32,000 nt of DNA from NCBI GenBank assembly GCA_009925585.1, contig RFYK01000004.1, positions 1 through 32,000 of the forward strand. The letters run 5' to 3'. This DNA is from Betaproteobacteria bacterium (GTDB taxonomy: Bacteria > Pseudomonadota > Gammaproteobacteria > Burkholderiales > Burkholderiaceae_C). How positions within the stretch are numbered: the first letter of the stretch is position 1; the number at the start of each line of letters is the position of its first letter. This document shows, piece by piece, positions 8,164-17,494 of this stretch. The translations under genes and the position numbers were made by a program. The notes below the pieces were generated by a model. That model saw only the letters and a program-made list of their open reading frames with translations, was not told where the DNA came from and made no database searches.

Positions 8164-10602
8164 GTGGCCGGCAGCCATGAAAGGTTTCGATTGCGCATAC
8201 TTGGCGGCCCTGCGCCTGTGTTGCTGGCTTGGTCGGCCGCTACGTTTCTTCAACTGTTTCAGCCGGTGTTGTGGCCGCAAAGCCATTACGCAGCGATGGC
8301 TGTGCTCAGTCTTTGCGTTGGGCTGATCAGTGACTGTCAGACACGGCAACTCGCGCGGGTTTGTGGGCAGATGGTGTGCGTGGCCAGCATGGCGTTTGCA
8401 CTCACCGGTTGGCGTGCGGTCTGTCTTCAGCAACACACATTAACTCCCAAGCTTGAAGGCGTCGATCTGTGGGTCATTGGCGTGGTGACCGAGATGCCGC
8501 AAGTCCGCGTGGACGGTGTTCGTTTTGCCTTTCAGGTCGAGCATGCCCGGCGCCAAGACGATGGCAATGAAGTGGCATTGCCCGATTCGATCAGTTTGGG
8601 GTGGTACAGCCAGCGTGTTGACAGCGAACCGGTGGCATTGCCAAGGCTCAGGGCTGGTGAGCGCTGGCGCTTGCCAGTCCGCCTCAAGCGCCCACATGGC
8701 TTGGTCAACCCGGGTGGGTTTGATGCGGAGCTGTGGGCTTGGTCGCAAGGTGTCCGGGCCACGGGTCAAGTGCGCGAGTCACTGGCCCCGCAACGACTGG
8801 ACAGCACATGGCTTTATCCGGTGGCGCAATGGCGGCAAGCAACCCGTGACGCGATTGCCCGCACGGTCAGTCAAACCAGATGGGCAGGGCAGATCGCCGC
8901 ATTGTTGATCGGTGACCAAGGCAGCATCGACAGCAAAGATTGGGAGGTGTTTCGCCTGACAGGTATCGCCCATTTGGTGAGCATCTCGGGTTTGCACATC
9001 ACTTTGTGGGCATGGATGGCCAGTCGGTTGGTGAGTGCGGTTTGGCGTCACAGCGATGTGTTGGGTCGATCTTGGTGTTTGACCTGTCCCGCTGTCCATG
9101 CCGGCTTGTGGGGTGGCTTGTGCTTTGCGTGGATGTATGCGGTGTTCAGCGGTTGGGGAGTCCCTGCGCAACGCACAGTGTGCATGTTGGCCGTGGCCAG
9201 TGTCTTGCAATGGCGGGCTTGCCGTTGGCCGGTGTGGGAGAGGTGGTCATTGGCCGCGGTGGCTGTGTGTGTGTGGGACCCGTGGGCTTTGTTGCAGCCA
9301 GGGTTTTGGTTGAGTTTTGTGGCGGTCGGCATGTTGTTCTTGATGCCACCATTGCCCCGTGTGGCTGCGACGTCCACCCATGTGCAACCTTCTCGTTGGC
9401 AGACATGCATCAACCCTGTGCGTCAACTGTGGCGCGAGCAATGGGGGTTGACGCTGGCACTCACGCCGCTGACCTTGTGGCTGTTTCAGCAAGTCAGTCT
9501 GGTGGGTTTGGCAGTGAACCTGTTGGCGATTCCTTGGGTCACGCTGGTGGTCACGCCGTTGGCTTTTGCAGGCATGTTGTGGTCACCATTTTGGCAAGTG
9601 TGTGGTTGGGCTTTGCAAGCGATGATGGCGGTGCTCGAGCCCTTGTCGTCGTTGCCCTGGGCGGTGTGGCACAGCGCCGCGCCACCGTGGTGGGTGGCCA
9701 TGTTGGGTTTGAGCGGTGGTGCTTTGGTCATCAGCCAGCAAAGATGGTGCTGGCGGGTGGTGGGTGCAATCGGCGTGTTGCCTGTGTTGTGTTGGCAAGC
9801 GCCGCGTCCTGCGTTGGGTGTGGCGCAATTGATGTTTGCCGACATTGGCCAAGGCAACGCGGTATGGGTGCGGACCGCGCATCACAGTTTGATGTTTGAC
9901 ACAGGGCCGCGCTTTGGTGTGGATAACGATGCCGGGCAGCGCGTGTTGTTACCTTTGCTACAGCAAATGAATGAACCCATGGACACCTTGGTTTTGAGCC
10001 ACCAAGACAGTGACCACACAGGCGGTGCGTTGAGCTTGATGGCGCAGCATGCCAAAGCCACCATCTGGTCTTCCATCACACAGGTGCACTGGCTGTCACA
10101 CCGGTTGTCAATGAAGCGTTGCGAAGCGGGGCAAGCATGGGCATGGGATGGGGTGTTGTTCGACTTCATTCATCCTTTGGCCAGTGACTATGACAAACCG
10201 TTCAGCCCCAACGCGCGCAGTTGTGTGCTGCGCATTCGCGCACAAGGACAAACGGTGCTGTTGACCGGTGACATCGAAGCCATGCAGGAGCAAGCGTTGC
10301 TGCAACGCATGGGAGACGCGCTGCGGGCGGATGTGTTGCTGGTGCCGCACCATGGCAGCAAGACATCGTCTACCGAAGGTTTCATCGACGCCGTGAAACC
10401 ACGCTGGGCGCTGTTTCAACACGGCTACCGAAACCGCTACGGTCACCCCGCACCGGTGGTGGTGCAACGCTACCTGCAACGTGGCATCCAATCCTTGTAT
10501 TCACCCAGCTGTGGTGCCATGCATTGGCGCAGTGACCAACCCGAAGCCGTGTGGTGTGAACGCGCCTTGGACAAAAGGTATTGGCGGTTTGAGGGAGGGT
10601 GA
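8164..10602 (+). CDS. comEC: DNA internalization-related competence protein ComEC/Rec2
   Basis: 812 aa with a GTG start. It has a polytopic competence domain (GIAHLVSISGLHITL) and a C-terminal metallo-beta-lactamase domain (LVLSHQDSDHTGG ... LLVPHHGSKTS). Confidence 0.9.
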   Translation: MAGSHERFRLRILGGPAPVLLAWSAATFLQLFQPVLWPQSHYAAMAVLSLCVGLISDCQTRQLARVCGQMVCVASMAFALTGWRAVCLQQHTLTPKLEGVDLWVIGVVTEMPQVRVDGVRFAFQVEHARRQDDGNEVALPDSISLGWYSQRVDSEPVALPRLRAGERWRLPVRLKRPHGLVNPGGFDAELWAWSQGVRATGQVRESLAPQRLDSTWLYPVAQWRQATRDAIARTVSQTRWAGQIAALLIGDQGSIDSKDWEVFRLTGIAHLVSISGLHITLWAWMASRLVSAVWRHSDVLGRSWCLTCPAVHAGLWGGLCFAWMYAVFSGWGVPAQRTVCMLAVASVLQWRACRWPVWERWSLAAVAVCVWDPWALLQPGFWLSFVAVGMLFLMPPLPRVAATSTHVQPSRWQTCINPVRQLWREQWGLTLALTPLTLWLFQQVSLVGLAVNLLAIPWVTLVVTPLAFAGMLWSPFWQVCGWALQAMMAVLEPLSSLPWAVWHSAAPPWWVAMLGLSGGALVISQQRWCWRVVGAIGVLPVLCWQAPRPALGVAQLMFADIGQGNAVWVRTAHHSLMFDTGPRFGVDNDAGQRVLLPLLQQMNEPMDTLVLSHQDSDHTGGALSLMAQHAKATIWSSITQVHWLSHRLSMKRCEAGQAWAWDGVLFDFIHPLASDYDKPFSPNARSCVLRIRAQGQTVLLTGDIEAMQEQALLQRMGDALRADVLLVPHHGSKTSSTEGFIDAVKPRWALFQHGYRNRYGHPAPVVVQRYLQRGIQSLYSPSCGAMHWRSDQPEAVWCERALDKRYWRFEGG

Positions 10603-10670
10603 TCACAAGGCTGATGGCTGCAGCGCAAGCGATTCATAGGCATCAGGCCCGAGGACCACCGAACAAGCTG

Positions 10671-11513
10671 TCAATCAATCCACTCAAAAAAGTGTTCTGT
10701 GACCGCAGGCCATTTGACATGGGACTCAGTCGTCACGCAGTAACGCAACACGTTACCTTGTCCACATCGCTGTACCTGACAGCCTGACACCTCAGTGTGT
10801 ACTTCTTCTGTGCACTGCATGCACTGTGCCCACCACTTGACCGTGCCTGCGCCATAGCCGGGGAACAAATCATCTTTCGGACTGTGCAGCACCGTCACAT
10901 TCAGTGGTCGAGGACAAGGCTCTTGTTGCAAATCTTCTGCGGTGATGCCAGCCGCACTCACCACGATGTTGCGGGGTGTTGGCAACACCGACGAGCGCAC
11001 GGTCAAACCCGTTGTCACACTGCCGCCATCTGAATGCCCTGCCAGCACCACCCGTTGTTCGTCAATGCACCAAGTGGCTGTGACCGCTGGCACCACCTCG
11101 GTTTGCATGCGCAATGCGCGGCTGGATAAAGGCACGGCTGAGCTAAATACCACCACATAGCCTTGGCGGTGGGCTTGTTCAGTCAGTTTGTAATAACGCT
11201 CTGATGTTTCGTTGGAAAACCCCGCAGGTGGAAACATCATCAACAAACCATAGCGATGTGTGGGCTCGTAGTTGCTGGGCGCAATCACCGAGTAGCGCAA
11301 ACCACTGGGTGTGTACAAATCCATGTGCCGACCGGCGGTGCCAGTCATGCCGGCAGGACAACCCACAGGCAGGGTGTTGAGCGAAGCCACTGCCAAGGGC
11401 AATGGCGGTTTGAACCAGCTCAGCGCCACCACATACAAAAGGCCACCCAACGCCAATGCCGCGATCAGCCATTGCCCGCGTTTGAGCCAGTGGGGCGACT
11501 TGCGTTCAGTCAT
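10671..11513 (-). CDS. Membrane-anchored alpha/beta-hydrolase esterase (PHB-depolymerase/LpqC-like); last gene of the CuMMO operon
   Basis: The ATG at 11513 (MTERKSPHWLKRGQWLIAALALGGLLYVV) gives an N-terminal anchor. The nucleophile elbow GHSDGG is present, along with a Cys-rich C-terminus ending ...ESHVKWP that is typical of this esterase family. The start overlaps the upstream copD-fusion gene by 8 nt (cATGACTGA). Confidence 0.6.
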   Translation of the reverse strand: MTERKSPHWLKRGQWLIAALALGGLLYVVALSWFKPPLPLAVASLNTLPVGCPAGMTGTAGRHMDLYTPSGLRYSVIAPSNYEPTHRYGLLMMFPPAGFSNETSERYYKLTEQAHRQGYVVVFSSAVPLSSRALRMQTEVVPAVTATWCIDEQRVVLAGHSDGGSVTTGLTVRSSVLPTPRNIVVSAAGITAEDLQQEPCPRPLNVTVLHSPKDDLFPGYGAGTVKWWAQCMQCTEEVHTEVSGCQVQRCGQGNVLRYCVTTESHVKWPAVTEHFFEWID

Positions 11514-13392
11514 GTTGATGAATCGCAGCGGATTTGATTTTGCCTTCCAAAGACAATGTGTCGTAGATCTGTTTGAGTTCGTTGATGGAAAGCGCAGAAG
11601 GGGATTCATCTGAACGCCAGCGCGCTCTGACAAACCCATAGCGATCAATCAAAAATTCCATGCGCGGGACGCGTGTTTCTTCGTTGAATAAATCGGGGGC
11701 TGCAAAGCTGCGACGGTAATTTGACCAAGCTTGCGCGATGACACCCTCTGAATCGCCCACCAAGATGGCTTCGCAAGGACCCTTGACCAAGTCTTTCAAC
11801 CATTCTGGGCGACTGACGATCACCAGTTGTGCAGGAAAGCCTTTCATGTCTTGCAATAAATCTCGCACCCTTTGCAGCTCGTTTTTTTGGTTGACAAAGA
11901 CCAAATGCACCGCGTGCAAGCCTCGCCATTCAGACAAAGACATGAAGTTGGTTGTGTCCATTTGAAATCGAAAATCAATGCTGGGCAACCAAGGGTTGAA
12001 TGGCGCAGGTGTGTTGGTCAGGCTGCGTGCCTCATGCCCCAGAGACTGCGCAACCAACCAGTTGATCAGATGCCAGCGTTCATCCACGGTCAACACATCT
12101 GCAAAACCCGGCATGAGTCCTTTGCCGTGACTGAGCCACCAAAACATGTCGCCGTGGGTATGCCAATTGACATGCGGCTCGGTCAGGTTGGCGGGTTTCA
12201 TTTGGTTCAGGATCGCCAACGGGCCATCACCATGGCCATGCAGGCCATGACAGGATTGGCAATGTTGTTCATACAAGGCATGGCCAGCGGTGACAGAAAC
12301 CACATCTAGCCGTGCAGATGAGTGCATGTACGTGGTGGGGTAGGCGGTGATGCTGGTGGCAGGCAGCGTCACCACCAATGCGGCCAGGACGCCAGTGCAA
12401 AGCGCAACCCGCGCGAGGAGTCGGAAGGTGTGACGCCCGAGCAACCACAACATGAGGCCAACCACGCCAGCTGCCGCACCCCACGCCAGTTGTTGCACTG
12501 TGCCAGTAGGGTCTTGTTGCCAGGCCAGTACAGGTGCCCAGCGAAATGAAAATGGCCACACGATCGTGTCGTGTGCGGCGGGAATGGTGCTTGCCAACCA
12601 ACTGGCCATCAACAAAACCGCCAAGGCCAAACCCAATTCGCTGGTGAGCCATGTGCGTGCCTGAGCATCAGATGTTTGCGAGCCTCTCAGCCATGTTCGC
12701 AATTGCCATGCACACACCAGTGCACCTGCAACCATCATCAACTTGAGAACCAACTGCAAGCCATAAGGCGTTGCCACCAAGCCGGCCCAGCTGGCCACCG
12801 TGTCGTTGGCCAAGCTGACACCAGAGGCCAAGATCAGCAACATGCCGGGCAGCGCCCAGGTTGAAAAATGTGCCAACGTCAGACGCCAAGTGTTTGTCGC
12901 GGCGTCACTGGTTTTGGCTCGCCACCACAATCCAATCACGCCAGACAGCCACAGTTGTGCCAACAGCACATGCAGGCTTGATACCAGCAGTTGCACCCAG
13001 CTTTCAGCAGCTGCCGCCACATGCCCCGTCAAAGCAGAACCTAGCATGGCAAGCAACAACACACACACGCTCAGCTTGTGATTTCGCAGCCACATGAGGC
13101 TTGTCAGCGCCAGCAGCAGGCAGACCACTTGTGCCAAGACAATTTGACCGACGTGCGTTTGCACCATCAATCCGAGGCTGAACGGTTCATTGCTCAAGTC
13201 TTGCAAAGTCCATGCTGTGTAACCCAAGCGAAGCAAAGCACAACACAGGGCAGAAGAAATCAACCAAGCAACGAGGCGGTGCGCCGAAAGTTTTGGCGTG
13301 TTGAATGGTGGGGTGGAAGTGGTCCAGAGCAAACCGAATGCAAACGCCATCAAGGCAGTTTGTGCACCCCTTAATGCAATGATCGGATCCAC
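11506..13392 (-). CDS. copD: CopD-family membrane protein fused to a class I cytochrome c and a C-terminal thioredoxin-like domain
   Basis: The N-terminal ~400 aa are polytopic and CopD-like. The heme motif CQSCH is encoded at 12247-12261. The C-terminal ~180 aa carry a thioredoxin-fold signature (MEFLIDRYGFVRARW) but no CxxC. The start is uncertain: a GTG at 13392 sits 2 nt after the copC stop, and ATG at 13350 is an alternative. The track start at 13533 would overlap copC. Confidence 0.7.
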   Translation of the reverse strand: MDPIIALRGAQTALMAFAFGLLWTTSTPPFNTPKLSAHRLVAWLISSALCCALLRLGYTAWTLQDLSNEPFSLGLMVQTHVGQIVLAQVVCLLLALTSLMWLRNHKLSVCVLLLAMLGSALTGHVAAAAESWVQLLVSSLHVLLAQLWLSGVIGLWWRAKTSDAATNTWRLTLAHFSTWALPGMLLILASGVSLANDTVASWAGLVATPYGLQLVLKLMMVAGALVCAWQLRTWLRGSQTSDAQARTWLTSELGLALAVLLMASWLASTIPAAHDTIVWPFSFRWAPVLAWQQDPTGTVQQLAWGAAAGVVGLMLWLLGRHTFRLLARVALCTGVLAALVVTLPATSITAYPTTYMHSSARLDVVSVTAGHALYEQHCQSCHGLHGHGDGPLAILNQMKPANLTEPHVNWHTHGDMFWWLSHGKGLMPGFADVLTVDERWHLINWLVAQSLGHEARSLTNTPAPFNPWLPSIDFRFQMDTTNFMSLSEWRGLHAVHLVFVNQKNELQRVRDLLQDMKGFPAQLVIVSRPEWLKDLVKGPCEAILVGDSEGVIAQAWSNYRRSFAAPDLFNEETRVPRMEFLIDRYGFVRARWRSDESPSALSINELKQIYDTLSLEGKIKSAAIHQHD

Positions 13393-13394
13393 GG

Positions 13395-13757
13395 TCAGGG
13401 CGTTTTGACTTTGAAGACGAACTGTCCTCGACTGGCGTGTCCATCTTTGGCCAAGACAGACCACTGCACTTCGTAGTTGTTGGCGACATGCGTGGGCAAG
13501 TTCACCAGCAACGTCAAAGTGACTGCATCCCATTGGATGTTTTCAGCGTTCACAGGCAACGGTTGGGCATTTGCGATGACCTTGATGCGGACAAATTTTT
13601 TCTCGATCGGTTCAGAAAATTTCAACCTCAATTGTTGAGGTGATTGGCCAATGACTGCATTGGCAGGTGGTTCGGTGTGTAGCAAATGGGCATGAGCGCC
13701 AACCCATGAGGGCAAACAAGCCAAGCAAACGCTCAACCAGCGTAAAACCGTGACCAT
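13395..13757 (-). CDS. copC: Copper-binding periplasmic protein CopC/PcoC
   Basis: 120 aa with a signal peptide ending VGA. The mature N-terminus is HAHLLHTEPP, the N-terminal His typical of the CopC Cu(II) site. The motif LAKDGHASRG is also present. The ATG directly abuts the upstream stop (TGAATG). Confidence 0.85.
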   Translation of the reverse strand: MVTVLRWLSVCLACLPSWVGAHAHLLHTEPPANAVIGQSPQQLRLKFSEPIEKKFVRIKVIANAQPLPVNAENIQWDAVTLTLLVNLPTHVANNYEVQWSVLAKDGHASRGQFVFKVKTP

Positions 13758-14327
13758 TCAATGTGCCTGAGTGTCTTTGGCTTCTTGCATGGCCACATCG
13801 CGTTGAAGCCGTTGACGACCGAGCTGCAAACCAAATACCGCGAGCAGCAACAAGCCCAACAAGCCCAAGGTGTATTTCCAATAACCCACACTGGATTTGC
13901 CGACAGAGAAGGGAAACACCGAGGCGTATTTGCGGTCAGCGCCCGCATACACCATGCCAACATAGTCGCCATCGTCCATGAAGTCGTGGCGCACCATCAA
14001 TGTGCCCTTGGGGTAGACCGCCGGTGACAGTTTGTAGACCTCAGGCGCCGCATCCAAGGGGCCATCCGTTTTGCGAACGATGCGAAATTCGATGGGTAAA
14101 TCCCGCAGGGCCAAATCCACCACATCCAGCACGATGATGGTTGGTCCTTTGTGCGGAATGTCTTCACAAAACTCGGTGCGCTGCGCATCTTCTTGGTAAC
14201 CCGCGAAGTGCATCATGTAAGGCCCCACGGTCAGTTTGCACATGTCTTGTTCCATGGACAAACCACCGTGAGCCCACGCCGTGGTGGTAGCCAGCCACAT
14301 GCTTGCAGCCAACCAAACGTGTTTCAT
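13758..14327 (-). CDS. PmoD/AmoD-like periplasmic protein with a C-terminal TM anchor (putative Cu protein)
   Basis: It has a signal peptide (MKHVWLAASMWLATTTAWA), a ~150-aa periplasmic domain with a C-x7-M-x-H motif (CKLTVGPYMMH), and one C-terminal TM helix (YTLGLLGLLLLAVFGL). Its position immediately after xmoB and before copCD matches amoD/pmoD. ATG at 14333 is an alternative start. Confidence 0.55.
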   Translation of the reverse strand: MKHVWLAASMWLATTTAWAHGGLSMEQDMCKLTVGPYMMHFAGYQEDAQRTEFCEDIPHKGPTIIVLDVVDLALRDLPIEFRIVRKTDGPLDAAPEVYKLSPAVYPKGTLMVRHDFMDDGDYVGMVYAGADRKYASVFPFSVGKSSVGYWKYTLGLLGLLLLAVFGLQLGRQRLQRDVAMQEAKDTQAH

Positions 14328-14334
14328 GCGCATC

Positions 14335-15573
14335 TCACAATGCCGTGAAGGTAGGCAGGATCGGTCCACCGACTTCGGTCATCAAACGGTTCCCCGATTT
14401 GTCGACGAAGAACAGCAGGCCACCGAATTTCGAGTCCACATCGGTCAAGAAACTGACCAATCGCTCGACTTCCCACAACGCATCGCTGGCTTCGAATTTG
14501 ATTTCGCGTGTTTCACCCGGCATCAAAGGCTTTTGGTCAGATAAGCCTAAACCACCGCGCGCAACCAAATCACGCGGGTAGTCTGCGCTGATGGCTTTGT
14601 CTGCGCCCGGCGCTTGTGTGTTCACAAACCGCAGGTTGGCTGTGGCGAACTCCAAAATAGAGACAGCTTCTGTGCCATGGTTGGTCATGCGTGCAGTGAC
14701 ATGCATGGCGCGACCAGGCACGTCATAGCTGGCTTTGAGCACCTTGACATCCACTGAATGGGCTGGTTTGGGCAGTGGATCGACTTTGTTGGTACCCGCT
14801 TGCAATGGCACCACATAGGGGTATTCGTGCTTGGCATACATGTAGCCGCCAAACGAGATGGCCACCACCACGACCCCCAAGATCACACCGACGGTGATGT
14901 CACGGTTGCTGATCAGCACATCCTCACGGCCTTTGTTCAAAGCGATCCAGCGTGGCAATAACAAGGGGCGCACCAACCAGAACAGCAACCAAAATGCGGC
15001 CAAGGCAAGCCAAACCGCGTACCACTTGAGTGCGCGTGCCGTGCCGTAGAACTCCAAGTTGTCAACCTCGATGCCGTTCATGGTCGTGACTTTTTGGACA
15101 TAGTCGCCTTTGGCGCCAGTCACTTCAATCCATTGACCGGGACCGACCAATGGTCCCGAGCCATGAATCGACAGCAAGGGGTGGATATGGTGACGACCAG
15201 GGACGCGGCCTTTCATGACCAACTTGAATTCGTAATCGCGGCCCAATTCAAGCTTAGAAAAAGACTGGCGTGCAGGCATGCCATTGAGGTAGCTTTCCAC
15301 CCGAGTGATCATCGGGCCAGGTGAATAAGCAGACAAAAACACCGTGTCAGGCAGGCTGACCGCGTCTGGCCAGTCTTCCATCAAACGAAAACGCCCGATC
15401 AAGGTGAACTCTTCGTTGACCTTGACACTTTGCTTGTCGTAGTGCACGTCGTAGTACTGCACAGTGCGGGTACGCAGGTACGGTTCTTGTGAGCGCTCAC
15501 CGTGGGCCCAAGCAGACTCGGTCGCGATGCCGATCAGCCCTGTCAATCCCAGCCACAGCAACAACATCTTCAT
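14335..15573 (-). CDS. xmoB: Copper membrane monooxygenase subunit B (PmoB/AmoB family)
   Basis: It aligns by eye along its whole length with M. capsulatus PmoB. The signal peptide ends AWA and is followed by HGERSQ (His33 equivalent). RVPGRHHIHP corresponds to His137/His139. Two central TM helices are present. The C-terminal cupredoxin region contains PLQAGT, VPGRAM, NHG, PGETR, WEVERL, FGGLLFF and ends GNR...PILPTF. ATG at 15639 is an alternative longer start that would overlap xmoA by 20 nt. Confidence 0.9.
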   Translation of the reverse strand: MKMLLLWLGLTGLIGIATESAWAHGERSQEPYLRTRTVQYYDVHYDKQSVKVNEEFTLIGRFRLMEDWPDAVSLPDTVFLSAYSPGPMITRVESYLNGMPARQSFSKLELGRDYEFKLVMKGRVPGRHHIHPLLSIHGSGPLVGPGQWIEVTGAKGDYVQKVTTMNGIEVDNLEFYGTARALKWYAVWLALAAFWLLFWLVRPLLLPRWIALNKGREDVLISNRDITVGVILGVVVVAISFGGYMYAKHEYPYVVPLQAGTNKVDPLPKPAHSVDVKVLKASYDVPGRAMHVTARMTNHGTEAVSILEFATANLRFVNTQAPGADKAISADYPRDLVARGGLGLSDQKPLMPGETREIKFEASDALWEVERLVSFLTDVDSKFGGLLFFVDKSGNRLMTEVGGPILPTFTAL

Positions 15574-15619
15574 TGTTTTTTGTATCAACTGCACAATTTT
15601 TCCCCTTGACGTTGAGTGC

Positions 15620-16471
15620 TCAAGCACTGGCTTTGACATCCGCTTTGGTTCCCATCAAAGCCATGACCTTGGCGTTGTTGGGCAGGAATTTCATGGAGGA
15701 CATGGCAATGCCCAAATACCACCAGGCGTAGTGCATGAAGATGCAAATGAAGCCCCCAAACAGGGCAGAGACCCAACTTGCCGAATCACCAAAGGTTCGC
15801 AGCGTGCCGCGTTCGATGATGCGGATGTACTCGGGCGTGGCCGAACGGGGATACACGTAACCGATCAGGTCGGCCATCGAAGCCATCATGCCTTGGTGAC
15901 TCACTGGCACATAAAAAGGCGCAAAGATGGTGTAGTTGGAGGGGTAGAACAAGAAGGCAAATGCAAAGCCACCAAATATCGCGGTGAACAAGGCATTGCG
16001 AAACACCAACAAGAAGACATCCAACACGATGGCACCTGCGATCATTTGTGCGGGCAACACCAAGTTCAGCGGATAGTCGGTCCACCACATGAAAGAGGCG
16101 GGGCGCGAGATCGACACCGCCACCATCAGACAAGTTGCACCCACGGTCGCACCAATGGGCAAGCGAAAGTAAGTCCAGAAGATGCCTTGCAAAGCCGCCG
16201 GGAACATGATCATTACCACGGGCGACAACAACGGCCAGTACTGTCGGTCTTTCCAATCCAAGAACATGTCCCAGTCACCAGCCAGCAACAGCACATGCAA
16301 GTGAATGGCGCCAGCGAACAGCATGATGATGGCAGCAACCACAAAAAGTTCGAAAACGCGTGAGTAATGCAGGGCTTTGGGTGACAGGCCAGAGACGCTC
16401 TCCACAGTATCGTGGGCGTGCGTTTGTCCAGCCGCAGCACCCTGAGGATGTTGCAGTGTTTCAGTGTTCAT
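15620..16471 (-). CDS. xmoA: Copper membrane monooxygenase subunit A (PmoA/AmoA family)
   Basis: 283 aa with LLLAGDWDMFLDWKDRQYWP, FRLPIGAT, LFYPSN and ATPEYIRIIERGTLRTFG, all hallmark PmoA/AmoA motifs. An AGGAG sits 7 nt upstream of the ATG. Confidence 0.9.
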   Translation of the reverse strand: MNTETLQHPQGAAAGQTHAHDTVESVSGLSPKALHYSRVFELFVVAAIIMLFAGAIHLHVLLLAGDWDMFLDWKDRQYWPLLSPVVMIMFPAALQGIFWTYFRLPIGATVGATCLMVAVSISRPASFMWWTDYPLNLVLPAQMIAGAIVLDVFLLVFRNALFTAIFGGFAFAFLFYPSNYTIFAPFYVPVSHQGMMASMADLIGYVYPRSATPEYIRIIERGTLRTFGDSASWVSALFGGFICIFMHYAWWYLGIAMSSMKFLPNNAKVMALMGTKADVKASA

Positions 16472-16498
16472 GATGAGCTCCTAGTGCGTGGCGACCGT

Positions 16499-17278
16499 TT
16501 AAGCGTTTTCGTGTTTGAAAACGATAGGCATGAGTTCGCGAAAACGCGAGATGATTTGCATCAAGACGCCTGCCAGTGACAACGCGTTCCAGCCCAAGAC
16601 CACAAAGCCCCAGTGCAATGGGTGAGAGAAGATTTCTTCGGTCAACCAGTAAGCATGGCCCCATTCGTTGTAGCCCAAGTTAGGCAGGATGAGGAAAGGA
16701 CCCACCACGGCAAACACGTGCATCAAAGAAATGCCTTTGCAAAAAGCAGGAATGCGGGTCATGGCATACACAAAACTGCCAATGCCAAACATCAGGTACA
16801 TGGGGATGCATGCATAAAACAGCACAACATGGCTCGGCGTGATGGGTGTGTCGCGAAGCACAGTTTGGTGCCAGTTGCCATCGCCTTCGCCAAAGAAGCT
16901 GCCGATCCAATAGAAAGTGAAGGTGTAAACCACCAACCACATGGTCAGGTAGAAATAGCGTTTGAGTTCGACTTCAGGGGTGATCGCATCGATGTTTCGA
17001 TCACGTGTCATGAACAGGTAAATTTGAATCACTGCCACGATGCCAAACAGCACAGGCAATTGAATGTAGAAAAGGCGCATCCAAATGTCTTGGAAAATGG
17101 GTTCGGTCGAATCCAAGCCTGCGGTCATGCCGTACATCTGTTGATAGACACGGTATGACACATAGACGCCCGTCAGGACGATCATGGTGATGGCAAACCA
17201 GATGTAGCTGAGCGTGAATCGAGACGTGGTGTCGCTCGTTTGGGTGAGGTGAAGTTCTCTGCTGGACAACGTAGACAT
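16499..17278 (-). CDS. xmoC: Copper membrane monooxygenase subunit C (PmoC/AmoC family)
   Basis: 259 aa with TRDRN, GDGNWHQTVLRDTPITPSH (Asp/His/His CuC ligands), KGISL, VVGPFLILPNLGYNEWGH and PLHWGFVVLGW (Asn/His/His CuD ligands). An AAGGAG sits 7 nt upstream of the ATG. Confidence 0.9.
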   Translation of the reverse strand: MSTLSSRELHLTQTSDTTSRFTLSYIWFAITMIVLTGVYVSYRVYQQMYGMTAGLDSTEPIFQDIWMRLFYIQLPVLFGIVAVIQIYLFMTRDRNIDAITPEVELKRYFYLTMWLVVYTFTFYWIGSFFGEGDGNWHQTVLRDTPITPSHVVLFYACIPMYLMFGIGSFVYAMTRIPAFCKGISLMHVFAVVGPFLILPNLGYNEWGHAYWLTEEIFSHPLHWGFVVLGWNALSLAGVLMQIISRFRELMPIVFKHENA

Positions 17279-17494
17279 AGATCGACTCCTTGTGTTCGGT
17301 GTGAAAACCGTTTGTCAACTTGAACCAGCGAATTTTTGAAATTTCCAGCCTGTTGAACAACGGTGTAAACACCTATGAAATGCAAGGTATTTCATTTAAT
17401 CAAGCGAAAAGTGCGCTTGAATTTGGGATCTAAACCCCGCCTTGGGATGATTCATGCAGTATCTTGCATGAAAGAGGCGAGGTTTGTGGCGTTT
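17279..17494 (-). promoter_or_regulatory. Putative promoter/operator region of the xmoCAB operon
   Basis: This is the only sizeable non-coding gap around the operon and it looks AT-rich by eye. It holds two inverted repeats: TTCATGCA-n6-TGCATGAA at 17451-17472 and ATGAAAT-n7-ATTTCAT at 17375-17395. A weak sigma70-like candidate (TTGTTC-n17-AAAAAT) lies on the minus strand. No experimental or consensus-level support. Confidence 0.3.

Follow-up and report, generated by a model that had tools for sequence, protein, structure and literature searches.

A freshwater Comamonadaceae xmoCAB operon that retains the copper ligands of the ammonia and methane monooxygenase family

Introduction

Does a diverged membrane monooxygenase operon that has kept its copper ligands encode a working enzyme, and if so, for which substrate? 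This question is raised by xmoCAB, an operon on contig RFYK01000004.1 (assembly GCA_009925585.1), of which positions 1 to 32,000 were analyzed as one stretch of 32,000 nucleotides, here called the window. The contig belongs to a 2.46-Mb metagenome-assembled genome (MAG; G000) of a freshwater Comamonadaceae bacterium, which is 94% complete. An earlier note on this DNA had claimed that all ligands of the copper sites CuB, CuC, and CuD are retained in XmoB and XmoC and that this retention indicates purifying selection on activity. The finding is correct and the inference is sound, and what is described is the expected state of a member of a known family.

That ammonia monooxygenase (AMO) and particulate methane monooxygenase (pMMO) share their CuB, CuC, and CuD ligands is textbook knowledge (PMC11725843). 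Furthermore, operons for copper membrane monooxygenases (CuMMOs) in heterotrophic Proteobacteria, among them Bradyrhizobium sp. ERR11 and Solimonas, have been listed as "of unknown function" since 2018 (Khadka et al., 2018, PMC6215863). Here, we add a quantification of the selection on the operon, the structure of the accessory cassette in which it lies, a warning against its mis-annotation as AMO, and a signature of three residues (H219, T213, and I216) beside CuD.

Copper Ligands of XmoB and XmoC

The operon has the order C-A-B, and each subunit is approximately full length in comparison to its own family (AmoC, AMO, and Monooxygenase_B). The genes and the codons discussed below are as follows:

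16499..17278, minus strand: xmoC, PmoC/AmoC-type subunit of 259 amino acids (PF04896, 6.4e-89, 298 bits; NF041641)
15620..16471, minus strand: xmoA, PmoA/AmoA-type membrane subunit of 283 amino acids (PF02461, 3e-80, 270 bits)
14335..15639, minus strand: xmoB, 434 amino acids in the longest open reading frame (ORF) (PF04744, 1.8e-136, 455.8 bits, model positions 1-380 of 380)
16829..16882, minus strand: CuC codons of xmoC, D133 (16880-16882), H137 (16868-16870), D143 (16850-16852), and H150 (16829-16831)
16613..16669, minus strand: CuD codons of xmoC, N204 (16667-16669), H208 (16655-16657), and H222 (16613-16615)
16640-16642, 16631-16633, and 16622-16624, minus strand: codons T213, I216, and H219 of xmoC, between the CuD ligand codons
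15502-15504, 15187-15189, and 15181-15183, minus strand: CuB codons H46, H151, and H153 of xmoB
16115-16117 and 16289-16291, minus strand: codons V119 and L61 of xmoA

Ribosome binding sites (AAGGAG/TAGGAG) are present upstream of xmoC and of xmoA. The start of xmoB can be placed in two ways, giving the 434 amino acids of the longest ORF or, as called in other assemblies, 412 amino acids from M23. XmoB displays a signal peptide, two cupredoxin-like domains, and two transmembrane helices, and residues 31-264 of XmoA match residues 12-245 of 1yew_B.

The residue equivalences of the earlier note had been drawn by eye. Here, they were taken from HMMER alignments to solved pMMO and AMO structures, and Methylococcus capsulatus-type sequences were compared through these PDB alignments only. 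All motifs that had been quoted are found on the minus strand where they had been placed. Within XmoB, the proposed CuB site is reproduced, as H46, H151, and H153 correspond to H33, H137, and H139 of M. capsulatus PmoB (3rgb_A). H46 also pairs with the first residue of two AmoB chains, 9cl6_A and 9pxf_A. Since these chains are experimentally observed mature forms, this supports a cleavage of the signal peptide after AWA.

For XmoC, residues 121-230 align without a gap to residues 144-253 of 1yew_C with a constant offset of +23 (residues 120-230 were used as sub-query). From this alignment the equivalences of both membrane sites follow: the Asp/His/His set assigned to CuC (D133, H137, and H150) corresponds to D156, H160, and H173 of M. 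capsulatus PmoC, and the Asn/His/His set assigned to CuD (N204, H208, and H222) to N227, H231, and H245. The CuC columns are D129, H133, and H146 in the Methylocystis chain 4phz_K. A fourth CuC ligand position, D143 of XmoC, is kept as well. The equivalent second Asp ligates CuC in the AMO structure of N. halophila and is essential in the mycobacterial hydrocarbon monooxygenase (HMO) (PMC12804982, PMC13058606).

The bis-His site of PmoB is lost in XmoB. The replacement of H48 of 3rgb_A by Gln (Q61) had already been pointed out, and the second residue, which was missed at that time, is gone too, since R85 takes the place of H72. It had further been stated that the H48 site is missing in alphaproteobacterial pMMOs. 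This holds for the sequences compared, with Asn at that column in 10 of 10 Methylocystis PmoB proteins, and the literature agrees that alphaproteobacterial pMMO lacks the bis-His site (PMC13058606).

The wording that "every proposed catalytic ligand" is retained has to be narrowed. It stands for CuB, CuC, and CuD and falls for the contested tricopper site of PmoA, where E100 is replaced by V119 and M42 by L61 in XmoA. E100 and M42 are among the residues reportedly assigned to this site by Chan et al. Taken together, full-length C, A, and B genes, the CuB His brace, the CuC and CuD ligands, and PmoB- and PmoC-like folds (see below) place the locus within the CuMMO family.

Ligand Conservation across the Family

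The comparison set comprised 80 related operons from named genomes, together with operons of ammonia-oxidizing bacteria (AOB) found by an order-level search. The patterns used for the related operons were specific to the clade of the window operon, below called the Xmo clade, and M. capsulatus and AOB operons were not returned by that scan. Of this material 77 operons were aligned, 59 rows from the Xmo clade and 18 AMO, pMMO, and deep-branching rows. None of the 77 operons deviates at the six XmoC ligand columns or at D143. The same holds for H151 of XmoB, and at the H46 and H153 columns a single sequence departs from the others.

In an alignment of 46 XmoC sequences, only 36 of the 259 columns show no variation, a set that includes all six ligands; by our own arithmetic, this corresponds to a hypergeometric p of ~5e-6. 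The retention of the ligands in XmoCAB is therefore non-random, yet it is the family default, expected and no peculiarity of this gene, because these columns hardly vary, if at all, among the operon-encoded family members. Beyond the operons, about 10 of 50 full-length AmoC-family representatives (50%-identity clusters from a library of 1.8 billion proteins) lack one or more ligands. As such losses do occur in other family members, the ligand test has some discriminating power.

Representatives of metagenomic origin that lack CuC and/or CuD ligands are P0126, P0128, P0132, P0143, P0164, P0165, P0222, and P0261; these may be degenerate paralogues, orphan copies of the C gene, or sequencing errors.

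The one XmoB sequence that fails at CuB is that of L066, an uncultured Bradyrhizobium MAG on a long branch within the Xmo clade. It carries Leu and Gln at the H46 and H153 columns, and its CuC and CuD ligands are complete. The C subunit has been described as the holder of the active site, and verrucomicrobial pMMOs without CuB are known (PMC11725843, PMC13058606). L066 would thus appear as a proteobacterial parallel to these enzymes and echoes the view of an active site in the C subunit. In line with this view, the literature assigns the active site to CuC and CuD and reports that HMO loses its activity when CuC is mutated (PMC11725843, PMC12804982, PMC13058606). For enzymology, XmoCAB therefore adds one more natural sequence in favor of the C-subunit sites as the indispensable ones, within a clade of which one member lost two CuB ligands and which as a whole lost Glu100 of PmoA.

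Selection, Intactness, and Predicted Fold

Pairwise dN/dS ratios (NG86) were calculated for the operons of five related Comamonadaceae MAGs, as the earlier note had proposed. The ratios, which are approximate, lie between 0.013 and 0.113 across xmoCAB, namely at 0.036-0.059 for xmoC, 0.013-0.033 for xmoA, and 0.060-0.113 for xmoB. For the adjacent pmoD-like gene, values of 0.16-0.21 were obtained, which is above xmoCAB. It is this whole-gene constraint, and not the nine ligand residues, that carries the argument for purifying selection on a functional enzyme.

Within the population, the exact XmoA sequence recurs in independent public assemblies, on at least 21 contigs that share the synteny of the window. 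Five complete copies of xmoCAB-pmoD differ from the window by 15 substitutions, of which 14 are synonymous and one is non-synonymous. The same synteny was seen in six independent assemblies. A frameshift or stop revealed by resequencing had been named beforehand as an observation that would speak against a functional enzyme; the independent assemblies of the same population contain no frameshift. One assembly seemed to be an exception, as gene callers had split xmoB there (L117, 2287-2320). The split is due to ten N in a scaffold gap and not to a frameshift.

A structural comparison had been proposed as well. Monomer models were predicted with AlphaFold2 from our own alignments, with a mean predicted local distance difference test score (pLDDT) of 83.2 for XmoB and 80.7 for XmoC, and both superpose on AMO and pMMO chains. 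In Foldseek searches against the PDB, the XmoB model reached a template modeling (TM) score of 0.93-0.94 with a root mean square deviation of 2.0-2.2 Å to AMO and pMMO chains, and the XmoC model a TM score of 0.86-0.89 to AmoC and PmoC. Significant full-length matches were obtained with AMO and pMMO chains only. This agreement in fold goes along with a sequence that had fairly been called diverged: AOB subunits share 39-41% identity with it, those of Methylocystis 35-46%, and M. capsulatus chains 41-47%.

These data support that XmoCAB is a functional enzyme under purifying selection, mainly because of dN/dS, the excess of synonymous changes, the lack of frameshifts, and the fold match, rather than because of the ligands.

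Phylogenetic Placement and a Signature beside CuD

A tree of the concatenated C, A, and B subunits was calculated with four AOB operons (L092-L095) and ten Methylocystis pMMO operons as comparison rows; the AOB identity of the comparison genomes was confirmed by their own genes for hydroxylamine oxidoreductase (HAO). The window falls into the clade of 59 rows, apart from AOB and Methylocystis, with a support of 100 in the Shimodaira-Hasegawa-like approximate likelihood ratio test (SH-aLRT). The hosts of this Xmo clade are Comamonadaceae, other Burkholderiales, Bradyrhizobium, Hyphomicrobiales, and Nevskiaceae. Within it, the window operon groups with freshwater MAGs of lakes, reservoirs, and rivers at 92% identity over the concatenated subunits, and the nearest loci come from Comamonadaceae MAGs of Czech and other lakes and rivers. 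Next to these stand operons of the Methylibium type and of the Bradyrhizobium ERR11 type. The operon of Rhodoferax OTU1 lies in the other subclade, at 46-49% identity. In most loci of the clade, a pmoD-like gene is present 3' of xmoB, usually followed by copCD.

Five positions of XmoC set the Xmo clade apart, each being constant within it and occupied by another residue in both AOB and Methylocystis: V191, L196, T213, I216, and H219. All of them lie within residues 191-219, the helix-loop that carries CuD. T213, I216, and H219 occur in 58-59 of the 59 Xmo-clade rows, where AMO and pMMO carry Met, Leu, and Ala. H219 (position 242 in M. capsulatus) is His in 59 of 59 clade rows and Ala in all 18 other rows, forms the motif S-H-P-L-H, and precedes the CuD ligand H222 by three residues. 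Among the family-wide representatives, His at this column is found only in the window, in its nearest representative (52% identity to the window XmoC over aligned columns, taken to stand for the clade), and in one distant sequence. In XmoA, the column of PmoA Glu100 holds Val or Thr throughout the Xmo clade, with Cys in one row, and Glu in AOB and Methylocystis.

As a tentative and rather doubtful suggestion, the Xmo clade could combine canonical CuC and CuD ligands with a differently built active-site helix, marked by H219, T213, I216, and the loss of PmoA Glu100. If H219 reaches copper or the substrate pocket, it might create a distinct CuD coordination or a second-sphere variant that sets the choice of substrate. 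If this reading of H219 is true, nature would have provided in this clade a test of which copper site carries out the catalysis.

Substrate and Rival Explanations

With respect to the substrate, the genome as a whole has to be considered. HAO (PF13447) was not found in the 94%-complete genome, and the same search gives 515-522 bits in AOB genomes. No ORF of the genome carries more than four CxxCH motifs, and thus no octahaem ORF was detected. A formaldehyde-activating enzyme (Fae) was likewise not found in a search of the genome with working controls. The search for cytochrome P460 was also negative in this genome, but it had no positive control, and it is not used as evidence here. Present are three pyrroloquinoline quinone (PQQ) dehydrogenases of the methanol/ethanol family and the large subunit of RuBisCO (contigs C213, C231, C91, and C21).

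Based on these comparisons, XmoCAB is quite probably a working enzyme distinct from both the AMO of nitrifiers and the pMMO of methanotrophs, and its substrate would most likely be a small organic molecule, for example a C2-C4 alkane or alkene. The genome without HAO points in this direction. More broadly, the separate Xmo clade, the lack of HAO and of Fae, and the three PQQ dehydrogenases argue for a small organic substrate in a heterotroph.

Mechanistically, export of XmoB and cleavage behind AWA would leave His46 at the N-terminus, where it would form the His brace of CuB together with H151 and H153. XmoC would hold the adjacent membrane copper sites CuC (D133, H137, and H150 with D143) and CuD (N204, H208, and H222). 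As in pMMO and AMO, these sites would activate O2 and hydroxylate a small substrate in a hydrophobic pocket to which XmoA contributes. Copper and electrons are probably supplied or handled by the products of three co-transcribed genes, the pmoD-like gene, copC, and copD-cytochrome c, and the alcohol product might be passed to the PQQ alcohol dehydrogenases of the genome.

Several points weigh against a functional enzyme with an organic substrate. The retention of the ligands is by itself weak evidence of function and silent on the substrate. In the pairs used for dN/dS, the dS of xmoCAB is 0.7-1.5 and thus near saturation, so that the ratios can only be approximate. The XmoC model is weak at its N-terminus and at residues 200-222, the CuD stretch, where the pLDDT is 45-59; the region equal to this stretch is disordered in crystals of detergent-solubilized pMMO (PMC11725843). 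Two equivalog models built for AMO are passed, as NF041640 (AmoB_BACT) scores 513.7 on XmoB at a cut-off of 336 and NF041641 (AmoC_BACT) scores 344.2 on XmoC at a cut-off of 319. In addition, the presence of such genes in Limnohabitans genomes was once interpreted as ammonia oxidation, as stated in PMC3591437. Finally, the physiologically studied relatives known to us, Rhodoferax and Polaromonas, include Rhodoferax OTU1, which sits in the other subclade at only 46-49% identity. Rhodoferax OTU1 is presumably the strain from the alkane enrichment of Rochman et al., who reportedly described alkane-utilizing Rhodoferax and Polaromonas with xmoCAB(D) (2020, ISME J 14:714).

The passed cut-offs also speak for a rival reading as a true AMO, which would convert ammonia to hydroxylamine in a heterotrophic or mixotrophic nitrification. 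For Limnohabitans Rim28 and Rim47, ammonia oxidation was indeed proposed from the genome sequence in 2012, as the text of PMC3591437 notes with reference to Zeng et al. (2012). Public records of the AmoA subunits of relatives read "bacterial ammonia monooxygenase," and the top sequence matches in the PDB are AMO chains, by a small margin. XmoB resembles AMO in the Gln at the H48 position and in the motif RHH-x-H, and all CuMMOs co-oxidize ammonia to some extent (PMC6215863). However, the third AMO model fails: NF041557 (AmoA_BACT) gives 282.9 bits on XmoA, below its cut-off of 290, and real AOB reach 365-371 bits, ~85 bits more. The branches of the tree to AOB are long and supported, the identity of the subunits is only 39-41%, and the cassette is patchy within a heterotrophic genus. 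Since no ORF exceeds four CxxCH motifs and PF13447, with its 515-522 bits in AOB genomes, draws a blank here, the partner that would process hydroxylamine is missing from what was searched. Neither the AmoA score and a grouping with AOB nor an HAO in the genome, which together characterize a nitrifier, were thus observed, and a true AMO is unlikely. This has a practical side, because the AmoB_BACT and AmoC_BACT models are passed and an abundant heterotroph could be counted as a nitrifier in surveys of lakes and rivers.

A methane monooxygenase would instead make the host a cryptic facultative methanotroph, equipped with a PQQ methanol dehydrogenase and RuBisCO, and we consider this very unlikely. 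The set of CuB, CuC, and CuD ligands is the same as in pMMO, pmoD is part of the operon as in methanotrophs, and both the three PQQ dehydrogenases of the methanol/ethanol family and the RuBisCO large subunit are encoded. Yet RuBisCO and PQQ dehydrogenases are general in Limnohabitans (PMC3591437), so that they provide no link to the cassette, and Fae was not found although the controls of the search worked. The clade is distinct, with 35-46% identity to the Methylocystis subunits, and none of the pMMO and AMO sequences examined shares its pocket residues beside CuD, which are Thr for Met, Ile for Leu, and His for Ala. The grouping with PmoCAB in the company of C1 modules that is expected of a methanotroph was not seen. 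It might also be argued that the operon is a decaying or non-catalytic relic, in which the ligands persist through recent descent only, since most congeners do without this accessory cassette and since ligands are lost in some AmoC-family representatives elsewhere. This is extremely improbable. All reading frames are intact, dN/dS does not exceed 0.11 at a dS of ~1, changes within the population are 14 synonymous to 1 non-synonymous, the ligands are invariant among lineages that differ at more than half of the other positions, and the cassette has been retained at several positions of the chromosome in different genomes. The reading as a pseudogene or relic was rejected on the selection data.

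Comparison with Known Systems

The closest known systems are the xmoCAB(D) clusters of non-nitrifiers, which belong to the same clade of 59 rows, share the order xmoCAB-pmoD and the T213/I216/H219 signature with the window, and likewise lie in genomes of heterotrophs without HAO. Among them, B. shewense ERR11 shows 57-67% identity to the window subunits. The host described here differs from other xmoCAB(D) hosts in being a planktonic freshwater Comamonadaceae bacterium with a small genome (2.5 Mb). It resembles Limnohabitans Rim28 and Rim47 with their putative amoCAB (Zeng et al., 2012, J Bacteriol 194:6302, via PMC3591437), which are also freshwater Comamonadaceae with a CuMMO operon and RuBisCO. 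Their reading as ammonia oxidizers from 2012 is unsupported for the present genome, in which HAO was not found.

Bacterial AMO (N. europaea 9CL6, N. briensis 9PXF, and N. halophila 9LEG) has the same architecture of three subunits, with TM scores of 0.86-0.94 for the fold. It also shares the CuB, CuC (the extra Asp included), and CuD ligands and has Gln at the first bis-His position too (PMC12804982). The identity to the window subunits is 39-45%, and AMO forms a separate clade. Further differences are the second bis-His residue, which is Arg in the window and His in AOB, the residues T213, I216, and H219 of XmoC in place of Met, Leu, and Ala, and V119 of XmoA in place of Glu. AMO moreover has HAO as its partner, and none was found in the genome of the window.

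In comparison to pMMO (M. capsulatus Bath 3RGB and 7S4H; Methylocystis 4PHZ and 7S4M), the CuB, CuC, and CuD ligands are identical, the active-site core of PmoC aligns gap-free with XmoC, and pmoD also follows the operon. The identity is 41-47% to the M. capsulatus chains and 35-46% to those of Methylocystis. In contrast to pMMO, the window displays no bis-His site and altered second-sphere residues beside CuD, and a Fae-based C1 module was not found in its genome.

The mycobacterial HmoCAB (Liew et al., 2014, via PMC12804982 and PMC13058606) is a CuMMO that acts on C2-C4 alkanes and is of actinobacterial origin. According to the accounts given in these two sources, to which the comparison is limited, mutagenesis showed its CuC Asp, His, and second Asp to be essential, and the equivalents D133, H137, and D143 are kept in XmoC.

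The Accessory Cassette and Its Genomic Surroundings

The operon is part of an accessory cassette, whose further genes are located downstream of xmoB:

10590..17493, minus strand: whole cassette of 6.9 kb with xmoCAB, pmoD, copC, copD-cytc, and an ORF of 325 amino acids
13758..14333, minus strand: pmoD/amoD-type gene, 191 amino acids, ATG one base after the xmoB stop
13395..13757, minus strand: copC, periplasmic copper-binding protein of 120 amino acids (PF04234, 1.4e-18)
11506..13533, minus strand: copD fused to a c-type cytochrome domain, 675 amino acids in the longest ORF (PF05425, PF13442)
10671..11648, minus strand: terminal ORF, 325 amino acids

The PmoD-like protein contains a signal peptide, a cupredoxin-like domain with the motif C-x7-M-x-H, and a hydrophobic C-terminal transmembrane helix. 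It matches PmoD (6cpd_A) with an E-value of 4.7e-18, and C44, M52, and H54 (numbering of a 203-amino-acid ORF) fall on the Cys, Met, and His of that structure. Signal peptide, copper motif, membrane helix, and position after xmoB are thus those of a PmoD/AmoD copper protein. The fusion of copD with cytochrome c is conserved 3' of the operon in relatives.

A gene of the AMO family was found in only 1 of 24 sampled congeners, and a search on the DNA level detected parts of the cassette in 2 of 30 congeners. In the congener G016 (L110, 1475-1501), the ComEC and DctP genes, which flank the cassette in the window, are 26 bp apart. Therefore, positions 10590-17493 of the window represent a clean presence/absence difference of 6.9 kb. 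In five MAGs (L003-L007), the homology to the window ends at ~10668-10717 and at 17307-17395, and the neighbors of the cassette are different there, namely fmt/azlC, a D-Ala-D-Ala carboxypeptidase, and a gene with a DnaJ domain. Terminal direct or inverted repeats and transposase or integrase genes were looked for at the borders of the cassette and none was found.

For the ecology of surface waters, an accessory cassette under strong constraint in freshwater Comamonadaceae implies a real oxidation of small molecules. The rest of the window is ordinary chromosome, with genes for a topoisomerase subunit, RND efflux, comEC, cyanophycin synthetases, and dnaK-dnaJ-grpE.

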